NCBI GenBank assembly: GCA_041664205.1
Contig: JBAYLF010000002.1
Span: forward strand, 29,690-93,689
DNA: 64,000 nt
Source: Minisyncoccota bacterium
Lineage (GTDB): Bacteria > Patescibacteriota > Minisyncoccia > Phycocordibacterales > JBAYLF01
Reading direction: 5' to 3'
Shown: positions 25,380-61,125 of the stretch, in pieces
How the letters are laid out: every line of letters begins with the position of its first letter
Numbering within the stretch: the stretch's first letter is position 1
The notes under the pieces: generated by a model
The model's input: only the letters and a program-made list of their open reading frames with translations
The model's database searches: none
What the model was told of the DNA's origin: nothing
Program-made: the position numbers and the translations under genes

Positions 25380-25631
25380 TTACTTTTTCAGTAATAATTT
25401 ACACAAATCAATTTTCTTTTCTCTCGGCCAGCTTTTTATCTCAGCCTCGCGCTTTGACGCACTGCTTCTGTCTTTATGCTCTTCCGTATAAAGAATTTTT
25501 GTAACTTTTCTAGAGCTTGTATAATGTCCGCCTTTTCCGCTTTTATGTTCTTCAAATCTCCTTTTAACATCAGTGGTTATTCCAGTATAAAGAGACCCAT
25601 CGCTACATTTTAAAATGTAAACAAAATACAT
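25380..25631 (-). CDS. GIY-YIG nuclease family protein (UPF0213/YhbQ-like)
   Basis: 83 aa, YFVYILKCSDGSLYTGITTDVKRRFEEHKSGKG. This is the classic YhbQ-type GIY-YIG. The start is 30 bp from palindromic element copy A. Confidence 0.8.
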   Translation of the reverse strand: MYFVYILKCSDGSLYTGITTDVKRRFEEHKSGKGGHYTSSRKVTKILYTEEHKDRSSASKREAEIKSWPREKKIDLCKLLLKK

Positions 25632-25661: not shown

Positions 25662-25735
25662 CTGTCATTCCCGCGCAGGCGGGAATCCAGATTAAACAGA
25701 TATGAACTAGATTCCCGCCTGCGCGGGAATGACAG
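25662..25735. repeat. Palindromic GC-rich repeat element, miniature copy A
   Basis: ctgtcattcccgcgcaggcgggaatccag, then a 16-bp spacer, then ctagattcccgcctgcgcgggaatgacag. The two halves are reverse complements, each a hairpin with an 8-bp stem. Its final ctag supplies the stop codon of the GH gene 25707..26789. Confidence 0.85.
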
Positions 25736-26789
25736 AAGTATTGAATAGATTTCTAGCCTCATTCCAAATTTCTGGCTGATTATGTTTTGTCTTCATCCAA
25801 TACCACCATTCTACGCCCCAAAAATAAAATTTGCTTAAGCCTGTTTGTTTTGCAAACTCAACATCTTCTTTAAACATTTTTAAATTCATTGATTGAGCTT
25901 GTTCTTCCAAAGAAGATTCCATAAGTGGCGCGCCTGTCCAAGGCTCCGCCTGCAATTCTATACAAATAACATCCTTATCAAAAACTTTTTTTATAATCTG
26001 CACCTTTCTCATATAAGTTACAGGATTTAAGAAAGAGTAAGTTCCAAAACCGAAAGTGTCCGTTACGCTCGTCCAAGCATTTCTATACATCGTAATTCCA
26101 ACAATATCGCCGATCTTCGCCGCACCGAACCATGTCGACTGCTCTCCGGAATCAGAAATAATTATTTTCCTTGTCGGATCAAGCGACTTCACCAAAGCAA
26201 CTTCTGCTTTCAGAAAATCATCGCTTCTATAATACCAAGAAGGACATTCACCGAAATAAAATAAAGGTTCATTCTCTACCTGCCAGTTAATGATCGCTTT
26301 TGAACCTTTGTATCTTTCAACAACCTTTGTGACATATTTTAAAAGTTGCACCTGCTGTTCTTCTTTTGATAAACCACTCATCCACGAAGGCGTGTGGCAC
26401 TCAGGCCATCTTCCTGTTTTCAAACCAACAACAAAAATAATTTTTACATTATTTTTTTCTGCCTGCTTAATCTGCCAATCAATATCATCAAAAAAATATT
26501 TATCTTTTTCTGTTTCAACCGCATTCCAATTTGTATGAAGTTTTATATTTTTTGCGCCAAGATCATTTATTATTGCTGAATAAGTTTCTTTCCAATCGAG
26601 TCCGAAATATTCTGCCTGCGACTGTGAAAAATCAACTCCCCACGGAGAATTGCTTGGAGTTTGCGAGCTAGCGCTTAAAGAAAAAGGCCAAGGAATAAAA
26701 AAGTAACCTAAAATTGCCATTATAAAAATAATGACCGCAATACCTAGTGAGATTAACTTTTTTCTATGTAAACCTATATTTTTAAGCAT
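25707..26789 (-). CDS. Membrane-anchored glycoside hydrolase, clan GH-A-like (GH5/GH113-type TIM barrel)
   Basis: 360 aa with an N-terminal TM helix and a WQVENEP motif (the NEP acid/base of clan GH-A). The last 9 codons and the stop are encoded by repeat copy A. Confidence 0.5.
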   Translation of the reverse strand: MLKNIGLHRKKLISLGIAVIIFIMAILGYFFIPWPFSLSASSQTPSNSPWGVDFSQSQAEYFGLDWKETYSAIINDLGAKNIKLHTNWNAVETEKDKYFFDDIDWQIKQAEKNNVKIIFVVGLKTGRWPECHTPSWMSGLSKEEQQVQLLKYVTKVVERYKGSKAIINWQVENEPLFYFGECPSWYYRSDDFLKAEVALVKSLDPTRKIIISDSGEQSTWFGAAKIGDIVGITMYRNAWTSVTDTFGFGTYSFLNPVTYMRKVQIIKKVFDKDVICIELQAEPWTGAPLMESSLEEQAQSMNLKMFKEDVEFAKQTGLSKFYFWGVEWWYWMKTKHNQPEIWNEARNLFNTSVIPAQAGI

Positions 26790-35819: not shown

Positions 35820-37310
35820 ATGACCCAAGAACCACAAGATAAATCAAATGGGGACGGAGGAGGATCGCTCTTACAACTCGCGGCTATAGTTGAAGAATCT
35901 CACGACGCCATCATAGGTGAAACACTTGAAGGCATCATCACTAGTTGGAATGGTGGCGCAACGAAGATGTTTGGTTATTCTGCAGAGGAAGCGATAGGAA
36001 AATCAATCTCTATTTTGATCCCTTTAGAAATGAAAGATGAGGCGTTATTACTGTTAAATAAAGTTGCCGCGGGAGAAGTGATTGCCGACCATGATTCAGT
36101 AAGATCACGAAAAGATGGAACAAAGATTAATGTTGCGATATCTGTTTCTCCTGTCCACACAAAAGATGGTGTAATAATCGGCGCTTCGGTTGTTGAACGC
36201 GACATAACACTGCGTAAAAAATCTGAAGAATCAATGCGTCAGATTCAACTAATTGTAGAAAACTCACACGACGCAATTATTGGTAAAACACTTGAAGGCA
36301 TCATCACTAGTTGGAATGGTGGCGCAACGAAGATGTTTGGTTATTCTCCTGACGAAGTAATTGGAAAACCAATGACAAATCTATTTCCAGCAGAACTTAA
36401 GGATGAATTACCAAAATTACTTGAAAAGGTAAAACAGGGAGAAGTGATTGCTGATTATGATTCAATTTGGTTACGAAAAGATAATTCTCGCGCTGATGTG
36501 GAATTTTCAATCTCACCCGTTCATGCTGAAGATGGCACAATTATTGGTGCTTCTCTTGTTGGTAGAGATATTACAGAACGTAAAAAAAACGAAAAAGAAA
36601 TTAAAGAGCTGAACGAAGTTCGTAATAAATTCATAACCATTATTTCCCATCAATTAAGAACCCCCCTCACGGCCGTAAATTGGAATCTCGAATCAGTATT
36701 AAGTGGTAAATTTGGCAAACTAGAAGATACTGTGAACAAATTTTTACAAATCACCTATAAATCAAGCATTGAAATTACTAATCGTATTAATGATCTGCTT
36801 ACAGCAATGGATATTGAAGAAGGACGCGTAGTATTTCAAAAAGAAGAAGTTGCTCTCGATAGTATAGTCGCAGCAGTTATAAATGAAATGATGAAGAGGA
36901 GTGAAGCAAAAAATATTTCATGGCAATACGCCGCACCTGAGAAAGATCTTCCTGTTATTGAGGGTGATGGTGAAAAAATCCGAACAATTGTTAATAAACT
37001 AATAGAAAATGCGGTTACTTATACTAAAGATAATGGCAAAATTATTATCAAACTTGAAATGCGTGAAGATATGATCCATTTTGAAATCAATGATACTGGT
37101 GTCGGTATTCCTACACCAGAACAACATCGTTTATTTACTCGTTTTTTCCGAGCATCAAACGCTTCAGTTATGCAGCCGGATTCATTCGGACTAGGTCTAT
37201 TTATAACCAAAAGCTTTATTGAGCAACATGGTGGAAAAATCGGATTTGAAAGTAAAGAAGGAGAAGGAAGTATATTCTGGTTTGAGATACCAATAAAATC
37301 TACTCATTAA
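35820..37310 (+). CDS. Sensor histidine kinase with two tandem PAS domains (HisKA + HATPase_c)
   Basis: 496 aa. Two near-identical PAS blocks (EESHDAIIGETLEGIITSWNGGATKMFGYS...). H-box ISHQLRTPL. N/G1/G2 boxes (ENAVTYT, DTGVGIP, GLGL). Confidence 0.85.
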   Translation: MTQEPQDKSNGDGGGSLLQLAAIVEESHDAIIGETLEGIITSWNGGATKMFGYSAEEAIGKSISILIPLEMKDEALLLLNKVAAGEVIADHDSVRSRKDGTKINVAISVSPVHTKDGVIIGASVVERDITLRKKSEESMRQIQLIVENSHDAIIGKTLEGIITSWNGGATKMFGYSPDEVIGKPMTNLFPAELKDELPKLLEKVKQGEVIADYDSIWLRKDNSRADVEFSISPVHAEDGTIIGASLVGRDITERKKNEKEIKELNEVRNKFITIISHQLRTPLTAVNWNLESVLSGKFGKLEDTVNKFLQITYKSSIEITNRINDLLTAMDIEEGRVVFQKEEVALDSIVAAVINEMMKRSEAKNISWQYAAPEKDLPVIEGDGEKIRTIVNKLIENAVTYTKDNGKIIIKLEMREDMIHFEINDTGVGIPTPEQHRLFTRFFRASNASVMQPDSFGLGLFITKSFIEQHGGKIGFESKEGEGSIFWFEIPIKSTH

Positions 37311-40975: not shown

Positions 40976-41370
40976 TGTCATTCCCGCCTGCCCGCCATGC
41001 AAGGCAAAGCGTTGCAGGCAGGCGAAGGCGGGAATCCAGTATAATCCTCACATGAACAAAAATTATTATGTTTATATATTAGCAAGTAAAAAGAATGGGA
41101 CTTTATATATAGGGGTTACAAATGATTTAGTACGCAGAATTTACGAACATAAAAACGGTTTAATTGAAGGATTTACTAAAAAATACAATATAAAAAATCT
41201 GGTTTATTATGAAGAAACCAATGATATAAACAGTGCCTTAAGTAGAGAAAAAAGTTTAAAAAAATGGAACAGAGAATGGAAACTAAAACTTATTGAGTTA
41301 AATAATCCGGAGTGGAATGATTTGAGTTTAGATTTATAAAACTGGATTCCCGCCTGCGCGGGAATGACAG
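40976..41370. mobile_element. Candidate full-length element: GIY-YIG nuclease gene bracketed by the same GC-rich palindromic termini as the 74-bp miniature repeats
   Basis: Left end tgtcattcccgcc...gaaggcgggaatccag (40976-41039, expanded/degenerate). The GIY-YIG ORF is at 41052-41339. Right end ctggattcccgcctgcgcgggaatgacag (41342-41370), 2 bp after the stop codon. Confidence 0.55.
41052..41339 (+). CDS. GIY-YIG nuclease family protein
   Basis: 95 aa, YYVYILASKKNGTLYIGVTNDLVRRIYEHKNG (GIY-YIG core, YhbQ-like). Confidence 0.8.
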   Translation: MNKNYYVYILASKKNGTLYIGVTNDLVRRIYEHKNGLIEGFTKKYNIKNLVYYEETNDINSALSREKSLKKWNREWKLKLIELNNPEWNDLSLDL

Positions 41371-45189: not shown

Positions 45190-45264
45190 TTGTCATTCCC
45201 GCGCAGGCGGGAATCTAGTTTCTTATTTCAACGGTCTGGATTCCCGCCTGCGCGGGAATGACAG
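45190..45264. repeat. Palindromic GC-rich repeat element, miniature copy C
   Basis: ttgtcattcccgcgcaggcgggaatctag, 17-bp spacer, ctggattcccgcctgcgcgggaatgacag. Lies 14 bp downstream of the serS stop. Confidence 0.85.
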
Positions 45265-46651: not shown

Positions 46652-47509
46652 ATGCATAAAATCAATCAATTAACGAAAGATGAATTCCCAGAACTACTGA
46701 AAGAAATTCCGGATCAGCCTAAAACCTTATATCTTCAAGGAAACTTGCCGTCTTATGAAGAAAATAAGTTTCTTTGTGTTGTTGGTTCTAGAAAATACAG
46801 CAACTATGGAAAAGAGGTCTGTGAAAAATTAATAAGCGGACTTCGCGGATATCCTATAGTAATTGTATCTGGACTTGCTTTGGGAATTGATGGTATCGCT
46901 CATAGAGCGGCGCTTGATGCAGGACTTAAGACTGTCGCTGTGCCAGGTTCAGGTCTTAATCCAAATGTTTTATATCCAAGCACTCACAGAGGTCTTGCTC
47001 AAAAAATTTTAGAAAATGATGGCGCACTTTTAACAGAGTTCGAACCGAATTTCCACGCAACAGTCTGGAGTTTTCCACAAAGAAACAGAATTATGGCAGG
47101 ACTCTCGCATGCAATACTAATTATTGAAGCTGAATTAAAATCTGGAACATTGATAACTTCGCGACTCGCAACAGATTACAACAGAGACGTCCTAACTGTT
47201 CCCGGATCTATTTTTTCAAAAAATTCTGAAGGGCCCAATATGTTAATGCGACTCGGCGCAACTCCAATAACTTCAAGCAAAGAACTTTTGGAAGCGCTTG
47301 GCTTTAATGAAGAAGCAACTGCAACCAAAAATTATAGTGACTGTTCAGAATTAGAAATAAAAGTTTTAAAACTTTTGGAAGTGCCGATATCTCGCGATGA
47401 ACTTTTAAGAACTTTGGAAATCCCTGTAAGTGAAGCGAACGCGCTTATCTCAATTTTAGAAATTAAAGGATTCATCAAAGAAAGCGCTGGAGAAATTCAT
47501 CTCGTATAA
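46652..47509 (+). CDS. dprA: DNA-processing protein DprA (Smf)
   Basis: 285 aa, Rossmann-like DprA core (VVGSRKYSNYG...VSGLALGIDGIAHRAALD). Confidence 0.8.
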   Translation: MHKINQLTKDEFPELLKEIPDQPKTLYLQGNLPSYEENKFLCVVGSRKYSNYGKEVCEKLISGLRGYPIVIVSGLALGIDGIAHRAALDAGLKTVAVPGSGLNPNVLYPSTHRGLAQKILENDGALLTEFEPNFHATVWSFPQRNRIMAGLSHAILIIEAELKSGTLITSRLATDYNRDVLTVPGSIFSKNSEGPNMLMRLGATPITSSKELLEALGFNEEATATKNYSDCSELEIKVLKLLEVPISRDELLRTLEIPVSEANALISILEIKGFIKESAGEIHLV

Positions 47510-50991: not shown

Positions 50992-51066
50992 CTGTCATTC
51001 CCGCGAAGGCGGGAATCCAGACAGTGTAGGTAAAAACCTAGATTCCCGCCTTCGCGGGAATGACAA
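50992..51066. repeat. Palindromic GC-rich repeat element, miniature copy D
   Basis: ctgtcattcccgcgaaggcgggaatccag, 17-bp spacer, ctagattcccgccttcgcgggaatgacaa. The loop variant gaag/cttc changes compensatorily in both halves. Lies 3 bp after the topA stop. Confidence 0.85.
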
Positions 51067-61052: not shown

Positions 61053-61125
61053 CTGTCATTCCCGCGAAGGCGGGAATCCAGATTAAACAGAGATAAACTA
61101 GATTCCCGCCTTCGCGGGAATGACA
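61053..61125. repeat. Palindromic GC-rich repeat element, miniature copy E
   Basis: ctgtcattcccgcgaaggcgggaatccag, spacer attaaacagagataaa (near-identical to the copy A spacer), ctagattcccgccttcgcgggaatgacaa. Lies 11 bp beyond the cysteine desulfurase stop. Confidence 0.85.

Follow-up and report, generated by a model that had tools for sequence, protein, structure and literature searches.

A small nuclease gene that sits between two outward-facing hairpins, in a genome where the same hairpins also occur without any gene, raises the question of whether it belongs to a mobile element of a new kind or to a system that has already been described. The host genome is that of a member of the Paceibacterota (candidate phyla radiation) with a G+C content of 34%, and the window analysed here is a 64-kb stretch of it. 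The locus is very probably an Ssn/NTS module, and as such a fresh example of a kind of element that is already known. The first description of the Ssn/NTS system came from Neisseria (Chenal et al., Nat Commun 2025, PMC11893778); its enzyme, SsnA, is a site-specific endonuclease on single-stranded DNA that binds NTS hairpins and cuts just upstream of them, transformation by NTS-bearing DNA is restricted by SsnA, and recombination around NTS sites is modulated in N. meningitidis. The NTS-ssnA-NTS layout, its statistical association across bacteria and an analogy with IS200 and REP-RAYT systems all stand in the same paper (PMC11893778), and since that layout was already in print, the claim of the initial annotation that this pairing of a GIY-YIG gene with hairpin termini is an undescribed family is outdated. 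The main text of PMC11893778 makes no mention of Paceibacterota. Literature searches for a follow-up on Ssn mobility after that paper found none, and searches on GIY-YIG genes with miniature inverted repeats, or on YhbQ/COG2827/UPF0213, found nothing relevant.

The ssn gene and its flanking hairpins

The unit is made up of four features, read from the sequence and supported by the methods given in brackets:
40976-41039, forward strand: left NTS hairpin (sequence, DNA fold, loop-tolerant scan)
41040-41051, forward strand: 12-nt spacer tataatcctcac between the left NTS and the ATG (sequence)
41052-41339, forward strand: ssn gene for a 95-aa single-domain GIY-YIG nuclease of the Ssn family (Pfam, BLASTP, alignment)
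41342-41369, reverse strand: right NTS hairpin, the canonical 28-mer TGTCATTCCCGCGCAGGCGGGAATCCAG on the minus strand (SRM pattern, DNA fold)

The 95-aa ORF matches the Pfam GIY-YIG family (PF01541, E=5.6e-17) over one stretch, residues 4-78, and has no separate DNA-binding domain; an overlapping, borderline match to T5orf172 (21.0 bits against a cut-off of 20) is not a separate domain. It is identical to a protein held at NCBI/ENA as 'GIY-YIG nuclease family protein [Candidatus Paceibacterota bacterium]'. In size and domain content it agrees with the Ssn family (about 90-105 aa, no extra DNA-binding domain), and an SRM/NTS hairpin lies on each side of the gene, as in that family. By BLASTP it is 63% identical, with no gaps, to the SsnA orthologue of N. 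gonorrhoeae (E=3e-42). This single homologue served as a proxy in place of the N. meningitidis (Nm) SsnA sequence, and it is relative to this proxy that the protein falls inside the SsnA clade as delimited in PMC11893778 (blastp E<1e-10 to Nm SsnA, or CDD cd10448). Y6, Y17 and E64, the positions at which the published Nm SsnA mutants were altered, are all present in the gonococcal homologue; their equivalents here are Y8, Y19 and E66 (two catalytic tyrosines and the metal-binding glutamate), and all three are invariant in an alignment of 20 sequences that includes proteins from Neisseria, Rhizobium and Planktothrix. The family typified by N. meningitidis SsnA (CDD cd10448, GIY-YIG_unchar_3) shares with the window both a protein of about 95 aa and the same Tyr/Tyr/Glu spacing.

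Several other assignments were rejected. The initial annotation had called the ORF YhbQ-type, a label that gives way before its identity to the Neisseria orthologue: in a search of solved structures, the UPF0213/YhbQ entries 1ZG2 and 1YWL score only E=9.5e-5 and E=9e-4, in the range of 1e-4 to 1e-3. That search found no Ssn structure, and its top PDB matches, WD40 repeat proteins, were disregarded as summed weak repeat matches. A group I intron homing endonuclease is likewise rejected (TIGR01453, NCBIfam grpIintron_endo, 19.5 bits against a cutoff of 56.05); the ORF is free-standing, outside any intron or intein and without a DNA-binding extension. With homing endonucleases of the I-TevI type and with UPF0213/YhbQ proteins, the window protein has only the GIY-YIG catalytic fold in common.

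The complete GIY-YIG ORF between repeat termini that the initial annotation reported, with the left terminus 12 nt before the ATG and the right terminus 2 nt after the stop, is borne out by the sequence. The left terminus runs from TGTCATTCCCGC, at 40976, to GCGGGAATCCAG, at 41039; its head, TGTCAT, points outward and is followed by the stem ATTCCCGC...GCGGGAAT and then CCAG. It is not a canonical 20-nt hairpin: an insertion of 36 nt, itself folded into a nested hairpin, enlarges the loop and extends the structure (DNA fold -23.7 kcal/mol, z=-5.9). The inserted stretch has no second copy in the 230 other loci compared. The right terminus, ctggATTCCCGCctgcGCGGGAATgaca, also has its head outward and lies 13 nt past the stop of a ClpB-like gene on the opposite strand (-10.3 kcal/mol, z=-4.5). 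The termini had been described as identical to the gene-less repeats; this is true of the right one, which fits the published SRM pattern, and must be qualified for the left one, which has the same head, stem and tail around an expanded loop. The spacer between the left hairpin and the gene contains a perfect TATAAT 6 nt upstream of the start codon. A consensus promoter scan did not call it, promoters here are no commoner than in shuffles and the TATAAT is not kept in homologous loci, so a promoter within the unit is rejected.

The repeat in the window

The repeat of the window is the NTS/dRS3 of Neisseria (CGTCATTCCCGCGMAVGCGGGAATCYRG) with one mismatch, T for C at position 1. All nine canonical copies show one mismatch to the NTS consensus and fit the published SRM search pattern, and where shuffles predict 0.00 occurrences of the core ATTCCCGC-N4-GCGGGAAT, the window has 9. 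The NTS hairpin is under structural selection: 99.1% of cells are paired, compensatory double changes are found in 3 of 8 pairs, and the covariation score is reached by none of 500 shuffles. Besides the two hairpins around ssn, the window holds four gene-less pairs, each arranged as NTS(+), spacer, NTS(-), which are given below together with a second GIY-YIG gene:
25380-25631, reverse strand: second GIY-YIG gene, UPF0213/YhbQ type (structure matches)
25663-25734, no strand: gene-less pair A, with a 16-nt spacer (sequence scan)
45191-45263, no strand: gene-less pair B, between a 273-aa gene and the seryl-tRNA synthetase gene (sequence scan)
50993-51065, no strand: gene-less pair C, between the convergent topoisomerase I and ParB genes (sequence scan)
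61054-61125, no strand: gene-less pair D, 11 nt 3' of a class-V aminotransferase gene (near-copy of A)

The initial annotation had counted five such pairs; a scan allowing up to 3 mismatches and a looser hairpin finder detected no fifth or degenerate copy in the window. The pairs measure about 72 bp, with hairpins 16-17 nt apart and a spacer that is not conserved, and they are the same two hairpins minus the gene. Over 74 nt, pair A has 95% identity to pair D, and the flanks of the two are unrelated. The intergenic gap that holds pair B is 98 bp long, against a median of 10.5 bp for the orthologous gap in 72 relatives. No direct repeat or target-site duplication flanks any of the 5 copies in the window (the ssn unit and the four pairs).

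Pairs of this kind recall the Neisseria intergenic mosaic elements (NIMEs), bracketed repeat units of 50-150 bp. Like the window, dRS3/NIMEs have the same 20-nt palindrome, ATTCCC-N8-GGGAAT, in inverted pairs around short intergenic segments; they differ in that the window hairpins are only 16-17 nt apart, around a spacer that is not conserved, and belong to another host phylum. The Neisseria Ssn/NTS system has in common with the window the NTS-ssn-NTS layout and many gene-less, intergenic NTS copies. In comparison, the unit of the window is very compact and strictly head-outward, whereas the downstream NTS of N. gonorrhoeae points to the gene, and its left hairpin carries the 36-nt loop insertion.

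The second GIY-YIG gene matches the UPF0213 structures of BH0048 and EF2693 (1ZG2, E=2.9e-15; 1YWL, E=6.6e-14), and the two GIY-YIG proteins of the window are 42% identical to each other. Its proximity to pair A, also pointed out in the initial annotation, is real, the ATG being 31 nt away; the adjacency does not recur, as NTS repeats are found near its homologues in 0 of 8 contexts. Being of a different subfamily, and given this absence, the gene is rejected as a second autonomous copy.

Gain, loss and copying of the unit in other genomes

Beyond the window, the compact NTS-ssn-NTS unit was found in nine or more contexts whose taxon labels span several phyla, with an NTS(+) 8-20 nt upstream of the start and an NTS(-) 0-30 nt past the stop:
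Melioribacteraceae: L007 and L207
Omnitrophota: L013
another Patescibacteria lineage: L186
a Rhizobium plasmid, with a different but complementary stem: L176
four high-GC IMG/VR contigs: L179, L182, L183 and L184

The surroundings include a Mo-cofactor operon, T4SS-like clusters, a neighbouring serine recombinase gene and the Rhizobium plasmid. Viral contigs gave no match when searched with a single Ssn protein and nine loci when searched with an Ssn alignment. Not every unit has its heads outward: the downstream NTS is directed at the gene in N. gonorrhoeae (L174), and at L177 both heads point inward. Several phyla are represented in the labels of Ssn homologues that are 70-84% identical to the window protein, above the 58% that the ClpB-like neighbour reaches at best, which speaks for horizontal spread; such labels may be wrong where a genome was assembled from metagenomes.

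Gain and loss polymorphisms in related genomes support the proposal of the initial annotation that the gene belongs together with its two hairpins in a unit that has gene-less derivatives. In L204, also a Melioribacteraceae genome, one hybrid double-headed hairpin occupies exactly the site at which L007 and L207 have the ssn gene, and the MoaC protein of L204 is 97% identical to that of L007 (Melioribacteraceae). The breakpoints do not coincide with the predicted cleavage sites but fall within the stems of the hairpins. The two hairpin cores contain 8-nt direct repeats, and recombination between these, or slippage, would explain this loss as well as enzyme-driven excision would. In a Patescibacteria locus (L031), the dus gene contains a 63-nt in-frame NTS insertion that adds 21 residues and is absent from L117 and L043, with flanks 88% identical. 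This insertion, like the arm of pair A that ends a window ORF (below), bears a resemblance to the palindromic elements of Rickettsia, a genus listed among SRM-rich genomes (PMC11893778), and to other in-frame palindromic insertions. Together with the near-identical pairs A and D, the polymorphisms of L204 and L031 show gain, loss and copying of the module and its hairpins, from site to site and from lineage to lineage.

One and the same moaC/MOSC junction holds the unit in genomes with MoaC proteins that are only 54% identical, which points to long-term residence there over frequent movement; between two of them, L007 and L196, Ssn is 74% identical. Head-only truncated copies are stacked outside the element ends in L186, L001, L013 and L174, and hybrid pairs have different stems in their two arms in L147 (8395-8459), L063, L078 and L047. 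In 1.08 Mb of Patescibacteria DNA, the SRM pattern has twenty matches without an adjoining ssn gene. For the window locus itself, a search of genome and metagenome contigs with the ClpB-like neighbour as query found no sister strain that would allow an empty-site comparison; even within Patescibacteria, the best relatives of this neighbour are 37-58% identical, the 58% being over a partial match. The clpB-dus junction varies among relatives, from an overlap to gaps of 5.8 kb with unrelated genes inside, and is therefore weak evidence for an insertion.

Predicted activity and possible routes of spread

Ssn biochemistry is known only for the enzymes of N. meningitidis, N. elongata, N. wadsworthii and Wolbachia, and the sole demonstrated activities are single-stranded DNA binding, cleavage and, in Neisseria, the restriction of transformation (PMC11893778). 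By homology to Neisseria SsnA, the 95-aa protein is predicted to be a site-specific endonuclease that acts on single-stranded DNA only, binds the NTS hairpin in one orientation and cuts a few nucleotides 5' of its head, its predicted target being single-stranded DNA that carries TCTGTCATTCCCGCGCAGGCGGGAATCCAG. The two flanking repeats would be its cognate NTS hairpins and, as they are arranged head-outward, the predicted cuts would bracket the unit of about 394 bp, one on each strand. By analogy with N. meningitidis, the enzyme most likely cuts NTS-bearing single-stranded DNA, whether incoming by transformation or conjugation or exposed on the lagging strand, and might in this way modulate recombination around NTS sites; the host encodes the transformation protein DprA (window positions 46652-47509).

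Whether the enzyme may also mobilise its own unit can be weighed against REP/BIME sequences and their RAYT nucleases, an analogy that the initial annotation reasonably drew and that PMC11893778 draws as well. These also combine a small nuclease gene, flanked by hairpins recognised as single-stranded DNA, with many gene-less hairpin copies, often in inverted pairs and intergenic, and for REP/RAYT as for Ssn/NTS, domestication versus selfishness is debated. In contrast, a RAYT is a Y1 HUH tyrosine transposase related to those of IS200/IS605, whereas the window enzyme is a hydrolytic GIY-YIG nuclease. Because GIY-YIG enzymes hydrolyse DNA without forming a covalent intermediate, no intrinsic strand transfer is expected of Ssn and the nuclease alone would not suffice for transposition. 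REP/RAYT membership is rejected, the ORF having no Y1_Tnp domain (Pfam) and the window no homologue of the Y1 gene found near ssn in L196; a classical IS/MITE pair is rejected as well, since inverted termini are present without a target-site duplication and the protein is a GIY-YIG hydrolase.

An autonomous transposable element, in which the GIY-YIG protein would be a transposase or homing enzyme and the 72-bp pairs would be MITE-like derivatives mobilised in trans, is a possible but doubtful reading of the locus. It fits the exact bracketing of the gene by inverted termini that recur gene-less, the occurrence of the same compact unit in unrelated contexts of several phyla, the A and D copies in unrelated flanks, the insertion polymorphism in dus, the head-only copies outside the ends, a pattern seen with elements that integrate beside their own termini, and the greater conservation of Ssn than of the flanking MoaC; the authors of PMC11893778 raise the same hypothesis. 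Against it, the Ssn recognition site is the element's own end and not an empty target, and Ssn cuts only single-stranded DNA in one orientation, so that the two ends of the unit would be cut on opposite strands. The chemistry provides no strand transfer, no target-site duplications were found, the only reconstructed gene loss (L204) breaks inside the stems, and the demonstrated role in Neisseria, transformation restriction, is at the level of the host (PMC11893778).

It is about equally uncertain, and on balance unlikely, that the hairpins were multiplied by another agent (IS110/Piv, a Y1 RAYT-type enzyme, or recombination and slippage), with Ssn being a domesticated host or defence factor. 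The dRS3 repeats of Neisseria are an integration target of filamentous phages by way of the phages' own transposase (PMC11893778, introduction), the L204 scar fits core-to-core recombination, the mixed-stem hybrid pairs suggest assembly by recombination over copying of one unit, and both the long residence at moaC/MOSC and the twenty SRM matches lacking an adjoining ssn point the same way. However, neither a Y1 transposase nor a large serine recombinase, the two queries taken from related loci, has a tblastn match in the 64-kb window, the Y1 gene that neighbours ssn in L196 is accompanied by separate repeats, unrelated to NTS, and so tight a linkage of ssn with hairpins across phyla would be unexpected of a gene that purely serves its host.

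A further proposal, which we put forward tentatively and consider less likely than not, is that NTS-ssn-NTS is an autonomous, horizontally spreading element with a new mechanism: Ssn would nick both outer edges, and host replication or repair would copy or relocate the unit, which would cross phyla including the candidate phyla radiation. Its derivatives would be the 72-bp gene-less pairs and also solo double-headed hairpins such as that of L204. In each proposal that has the unit moved by its own product, the GIY-YIG protein would be the mobilising enzyme.

Ordinary terminators (an alternative that the initial annotation named) or mRNA-stabilising hairpins, placed around a GIY-YIG gene by coincidence, are very improbable: all copies are intergenic or at gene ends, and on the minus strand CCAGTTTTAT comes after the right NTS, which a scan classed as terminator-like 13 nt past the ClpB-like stop, but only 5 sites occur among about 75 genes with no general T-run, the non-palindromic head and tail (TGTCAT...ATCCAG) are kept across phyla and give the repeat an orientation, one copy lies in frame inside a coding region (dus, L031), and the linkage of gene and hairpins in many phyla, statistical in PMC11893778, contradicts it.

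Under the preferred reading, an Ssn/NTS module, a repeat-enzyme pair of Neisseria occurs with its 28-nt hairpin near-unchanged in the ultra-small, uncultivated Paceibacterota and in several other phyla, which supports a horizontally moving cassette and not a peculiarity of Neisseria. The compact unit, the L204 scar and the dus insertion of L031 provide material for deciding between a selfish element and a domesticated regulator of single-stranded DNA recombination, and the Ssn loci add candidate enzyme/site pairs of biotechnological interest as sequence-specific cutters of single-stranded DNA. NTS loci also account for spurious peptide tails in gene predictions, such as VIPAKAGIQ, SFPRKRES and IPAFAGMT; in the window, a 360-aa ORF at 25707-26789 on the reverse strand takes its final 9 codons and its stop (SVIPAQAGI*) from the right arm of pair A.

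The ssn gene, its hairpins and its family

Both the 95-aa GIY-YIG gene of the window and the inverted hairpin repeats that enclose it belong to an already published system, the Ssn nucleases and the Neisseria Transformation Sequence (NTS), so the family is not new as the initial annotation had supposed. The position that the annotation gave to the termini, 12 nt before the ATG and 2 nt after the stop, is borne out by the sequence at 40976-41039 and 41342-41369.

The ssn unit and the gene-less NTS pairs of the window
40976-41039: left repeat of the ssn unit, opening with TGTCATTCCCGC at 40976 and closing with GCGGGAATCCAG at 41039, 12 nt 5' of the ATG
41052-41339 (+): ssn ORF, 95 aa, single Pfam GIY-YIG domain (PF01541, E=5.6e-17)
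41342-41369: right repeat of the ssn unit, ctggATTCCCGCctgcGCGGGAATgaca, reverse complement of the left type, beginning 2 nt past the stop
25663-25734: gene-less NTS pair A
45191-45263: gene-less NTS pair B
50993-51065: gene-less NTS pair C
61054-61125: gene-less NTS pair D

The repeat core, searched for in full-text literature, turned up in the work of Chenal et al. (Nat Commun 2025; PMC11893778), who define the 28-nt NTS, CGTCATTCCCGCGMAVGCGGGAATCYRG, containing the long-known dRS3 (ATTCCC-N8-GGGAAT). In many bacteria, NTS-like motifs (SRMs) flank homologues of the small GIY-YIG gene ssnA, being nearby in 71% and on both sides in 42% of cases; the family is named Ssn (CDD cd10448), and NTS-ssnA-NTS is likened to an insertion sequence and to REP/RAYT (PMC11893778). 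The architecture noted earlier for the window is real and non-trivial, and its interpretation there is close to the field's own reading. Each of the nine canonical copies in the window differs from the NTS consensus at a single base (T for C at position 1) and fits the published SRM search pattern.

The Neisseria reference protein was the homologue found by tblastn in two N. gonorrhoeae chromosomes in PLSDB, with one match in each; NZ_CP119140.1 and NZ_CP119142.1 (~2.17 Mb), the source of the ssnA locus L174, are labelled plasmids there but are evidently whole chromosomes. This 94-aa homologue lies among NTS copies and carries Tyr6, Tyr17 and Glu64, the exact residues mutated in the published Nm SsnA. 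The window protein aligns with this homologue gaplessly over 89 residues at 63% identity (E=3e-42) and retains the equivalents Y8, Y19 and E66. The window lies on a 218-kb contig from a metagenome assembly (ENA ERZ27249449, k141_993241), where the protein is deposited as a GIY-YIG nuclease family protein of a Candidatus Paceibacterota bacterium. The match of the window Ssn to UPF0213 (YhbQ-like) structures is weak (E=1e-4 to 1e-3), whereas a second GIY-YIG gene (25380-25631, minus strand) reaches E=3e-15 and 7e-14, so that the label "YhbQ-type" suits the second gene and not the ORF on which it had been placed.

The window shares the NTS-ssn-NTS layout of the published system, but its host belongs to the candidate phyla radiation, a group absent from the main text of PMC11893778; our literature searches returned no work on Ssn/NTS later than that paper. 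The additions made here are modest: an example from the candidate phyla radiation in which the Neisseria-type site is nearly unchanged, a strict and compact geometry that recurs across phyla, a solo hairpin that is probably a deletion scar, and an in-frame insertion polymorphism.

The left terminus of the ssn unit is atypical in that its hairpin loop holds a 36-nt insertion that lengthens the stem-loop (DNA fold -23.7 kcal/mol, z=-5.9). No second copy of this insertion occurs anywhere in the sequence compared, and loop-expanded hairpins are seen elsewhere, as in the right arm of locus L196. G+C content is 25.0% in the gene, 34.1% in the whole window and 64% in the 28-nt NTS, and the hairpins around the gene form sharp G+C islands. 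A perfect TATAAT stands 6 nt 5' of the ATG (within 41040-41051) and a Shine-Dalgarno sequence is absent, which would fit a leaderless transcript; the TATAAT is not conserved across homologous loci, and a consensus promoter scan made no call there. Two database homologues (P0042 and P0112) bear N- or C-terminal extensions (MSFPRKRES..., ...MDSRSSRE) that are translated flanking NTS and hence gene-calling artefacts produced by the repeat.

Gene-less pairs and the second GIY-YIG gene

The window holds nine copies of the 20-nt palindrome ATTCCCGC-N4-GCGGGAAT, where dinucleotide-preserving shuffles predict 0.00, and nine copies are perfect over a 27-mer that includes the non-palindromic head TGTCAT, which orients each copy, and the tail ATCYAG. 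Eight of the nine make up four gene-less, head-outward inverted pairs with spacers of 16-17 nt; five had been claimed, and no fifth was found in the window with up to three mismatches allowed and a looser hairpin finder. Every window copy is intergenic or at a gene end, among housekeeping neighbours (Dus, a ClpB-like ATPase, seryl-tRNA synthetase, topoisomerase I, ParB and a class-V aminotransferase). Pair A and pair D, set in unrelated flanks, share 95% identity across 74 nt that include the spacer. A 360-aa ORF without a Pfam match (25707-26789, minus strand) ends in ...NTSVIPAQAGI* (within 25707-25760), its final nine codons and stop coming from the right arm of pair A; the repeat has thus reshaped the C-terminus of a host gene. 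In all four pairs one arm ends in CCAG and the other in CTAG, while the ssn unit has CCAG on both; as both patterns occur among pairs of other genomes, this may be chance (~0.06 for four of four).

The second GIY-YIG gene does start close to pair A, at 31 nt, as had been noted. The link to the NTS drawn from this adjacency did not hold: in three other contexts of close homologues of this gene, no NTS was present in the 1.5-kb flanks. Its product shares 36% identity with the Neisseria protein and 42% with the window Ssn. The chance of a pair adjoining it is by our estimate ~0.1, given about 75 intergenic regions and four pairs, and the adjacency is treated as coincidence. Five weaker GIY-YIG hits in syntenic loci have no adjoining SRM and, scoring 32-52 bits against the Ssn profile, are not Ssn-type. 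Elsewhere in the window, a 155-nt direct repeat (35886-36040 and 36252-36406; 81% identity, 366-nt spacing) within a 496-aa PAS/histidine-kinase ORF (35820-37310) probably represents duplicated PAS domains.

Geometry, gain and loss across lineages

Among Ssn-type loci from several sources the head-outward layout recurs, the NTS(+) lying 8-20 nt 5' of the start codon and the NTS(-) 0-30 nt 3' of the stop.

Head-outward ssn units in other genomes and contigs
L007, L207: labelled Melioribacteraceae, molybdenum-cofactor operon
L013: labelled Omnitrophota, adjoining a large serine recombinase and an HTH_17 gene
L186: second Patescibacteria lineage, T4SS-like cluster, between TraC-like and PrgI genes
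L176: Rhizobium plasmid, stem CCCAGGG/CCCTGGG with unchanged head and tail
L179, L182, L183, L184: high-GC IMG/VR contigs, repeat abutting the stop codon

The exceptions are N. gonorrhoeae, where the downstream NTS faces the gene, L177 (both heads inward), L001 (right repeat degraded) and L175 and L178 (other hairpin types); L181 gave no SRM hit. Across 29 distinct 28-mers, stem pairing holds in 99.1% of cells, three of the eight stem pairs show compensatory double changes, and the observed covariation score was reached by no shuffle. In two Patescibacteria lineages ssn lies within a T4SS-like cluster with PrgI, TraC-like and TraG P-loop genes (L001 1243-5254; L186 1408-3120), which may link it to conjugative ssDNA transfer; a truncated ssn fragment of L001 (1878-2045) and its right NTS sit between PrgI and TraC-like genes, where L186 has its intact gene.

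Ten further Patescibacteria loci hold gene-less head-outward pairs of ~70-76 bp. In several of these pairs the stem differs between the two arms (L147 8395-8459, L063 3126-3196, L078 7339-7412, L047 3991-4059), for instance where a left arm of ATTCCCGC type stands opposite a right arm of CCCGGG type, and such hybrids cannot have arisen by copying one palindromic unit.

The evidence on mobility of the ssn unit is not one-sided. Ssn proteins of 70-84% identity carry the labels Taylorbacteria, Omnitrophota, Melioribacteraceae, Ignavibacteriaceae, Nitrospirae and Armatimonadota (metagenome-bin labels, which may contain errors), and housekeeping neighbours are much more diverged, even inside Patescibacteria. 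Two large scans with the ClpB-like neighbour brought up relatives of only 37-58% identity and yielded 155 syntenic Patescibacteria loci. In 72 relatives the median gap between SerRS and the adjoining 273-aa gene is 10.5 bp; in the window it is 98 bp, 73 of them pair B. At the clpB-dus junction, site of the window ssn unit, the two genes are direct neighbours (<100 bp apart) in 19 of 83 relatives; the junction is otherwise variable, with unrelated genes.

Firmer evidence on mobility comes from a gene loss in Melioribacteraceae, an insertion in dus and the likeness of window pairs A and D. In Melioribacteraceae the unit lies between moaC and a MOSC gene (L007 2962-3321, L207 2466-2827). At the same junction L204 (2473-2499), like L205 and L206, has a solo double-headed hairpin, tgtTATCCCCGCcttcGCGGGAATGACA, and its MoaC is 97% identical to that of L007; L211 (88%) has no hairpin whatever there. 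The solo copy is a hybrid, with a 5' stem of left type and a loop, 3' stem and head of right type, and the cores of the two hairpins form 8-nt direct repeats on one strand. By parsimony, the gene would have been lost from L204 through a deletion with breakpoints inside both hairpin cores. The solo hairpin may represent such a deletion scar or, alternatively, a potential acceptor site. L196 has its unit at this junction too (MoaC 54% and Ssn 74% identical to L007), which indicates either an ancient resident under strong constraint or one site hit twice.

Within dus, L031 (13611-13673), a Patescibacteria genome, carries a 63-nt in-frame NTS-containing insertion that adds DISSLSVIPAKAGIQSRDSNF and is absent in L117 (3003-3118) and L043, both with flanks 88% identical, and in two outgroups. 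L076 (2660-2822) has an insertion at that site with the compensatory stem variant ATTCCGGC/GCCGGAAT, and L042 an unrelated one. Truncated head-only copies, such as four of cttgtcatcctc... at ~40-nt spacing, are stacked just beyond unit ends in unrelated genomes (L186 ~2150-2268, L001 2880-2907, L013 762-785, L174 1410-1470); repeated insertion beside an existing end and abortive repair are among the possibilities. None of the copies shows a target-site duplication.

Predicted activity and competing readings

SsnA binds the hairpin and cleaves only single-stranded DNA, in one orientation only, just upstream of the repeat; Ssn homologues cut ~3 nt 5' of the NTS, on that strand only, so that incoming ssDNA bearing an NTS is shortened and recombines less, and SsnA reduces transformation by NTS-bearing DNA about five-fold (PMC11893778). 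Since conservation extends to the protein, its catalytic residues and its site, the window Ssn would be expected to bind and cut NTS ssDNA likewise; with both heads outward, cleavage is predicted immediately beyond 40976 on the plus strand and immediately beyond 41369 on the minus strand. A DprA gene (DNA_processg_A, 285 aa; 46652-47509) lies five kb from ssn, and the order ParB, TopA, DprA, SerRS, ..., ClpB-like, Dus is kept in many of the 155 loci. DprA loads RecA onto incoming ssDNA during natural transformation. Together with the T4SS-like settings of ssn in two other Patescibacteria lineages, the presence of DprA makes incoming ssDNA a plausible substrate of the window Ssn. Nicks at the unit edges may also seed new copies of the unit or the miniature pairs.

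Two readings of the unit are each compatible with the Ssn/NTS identification. That it is an autonomous transposon with the gene-less pairs as its MITEs is possible but somewhat doubtful, and we are equally hesitant about the second, in which the hairpins spread by other means and Ssn was domesticated. GIY-YIG enzymes hydrolyse DNA with no covalent intermediate, and therefore cannot complete transposition alone; a mobile element driven by the nuclease, and mechanistically of a new type, is a tentative proposal, on the unlikely side. A Y1 transposase and a large serine recombinase from related loci found no homologue by tblastn in the 64-kb window, and the Y1 gene near ssn in L196 carries its own repeats, unrelated to the NTS. 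Plain transcription terminators, which would have undone the mobile-element interpretation, are excluded by the oriented conservation of the repeats across phyla, by the in-frame copy in a coding gene and by their linkage to the ssn gene.
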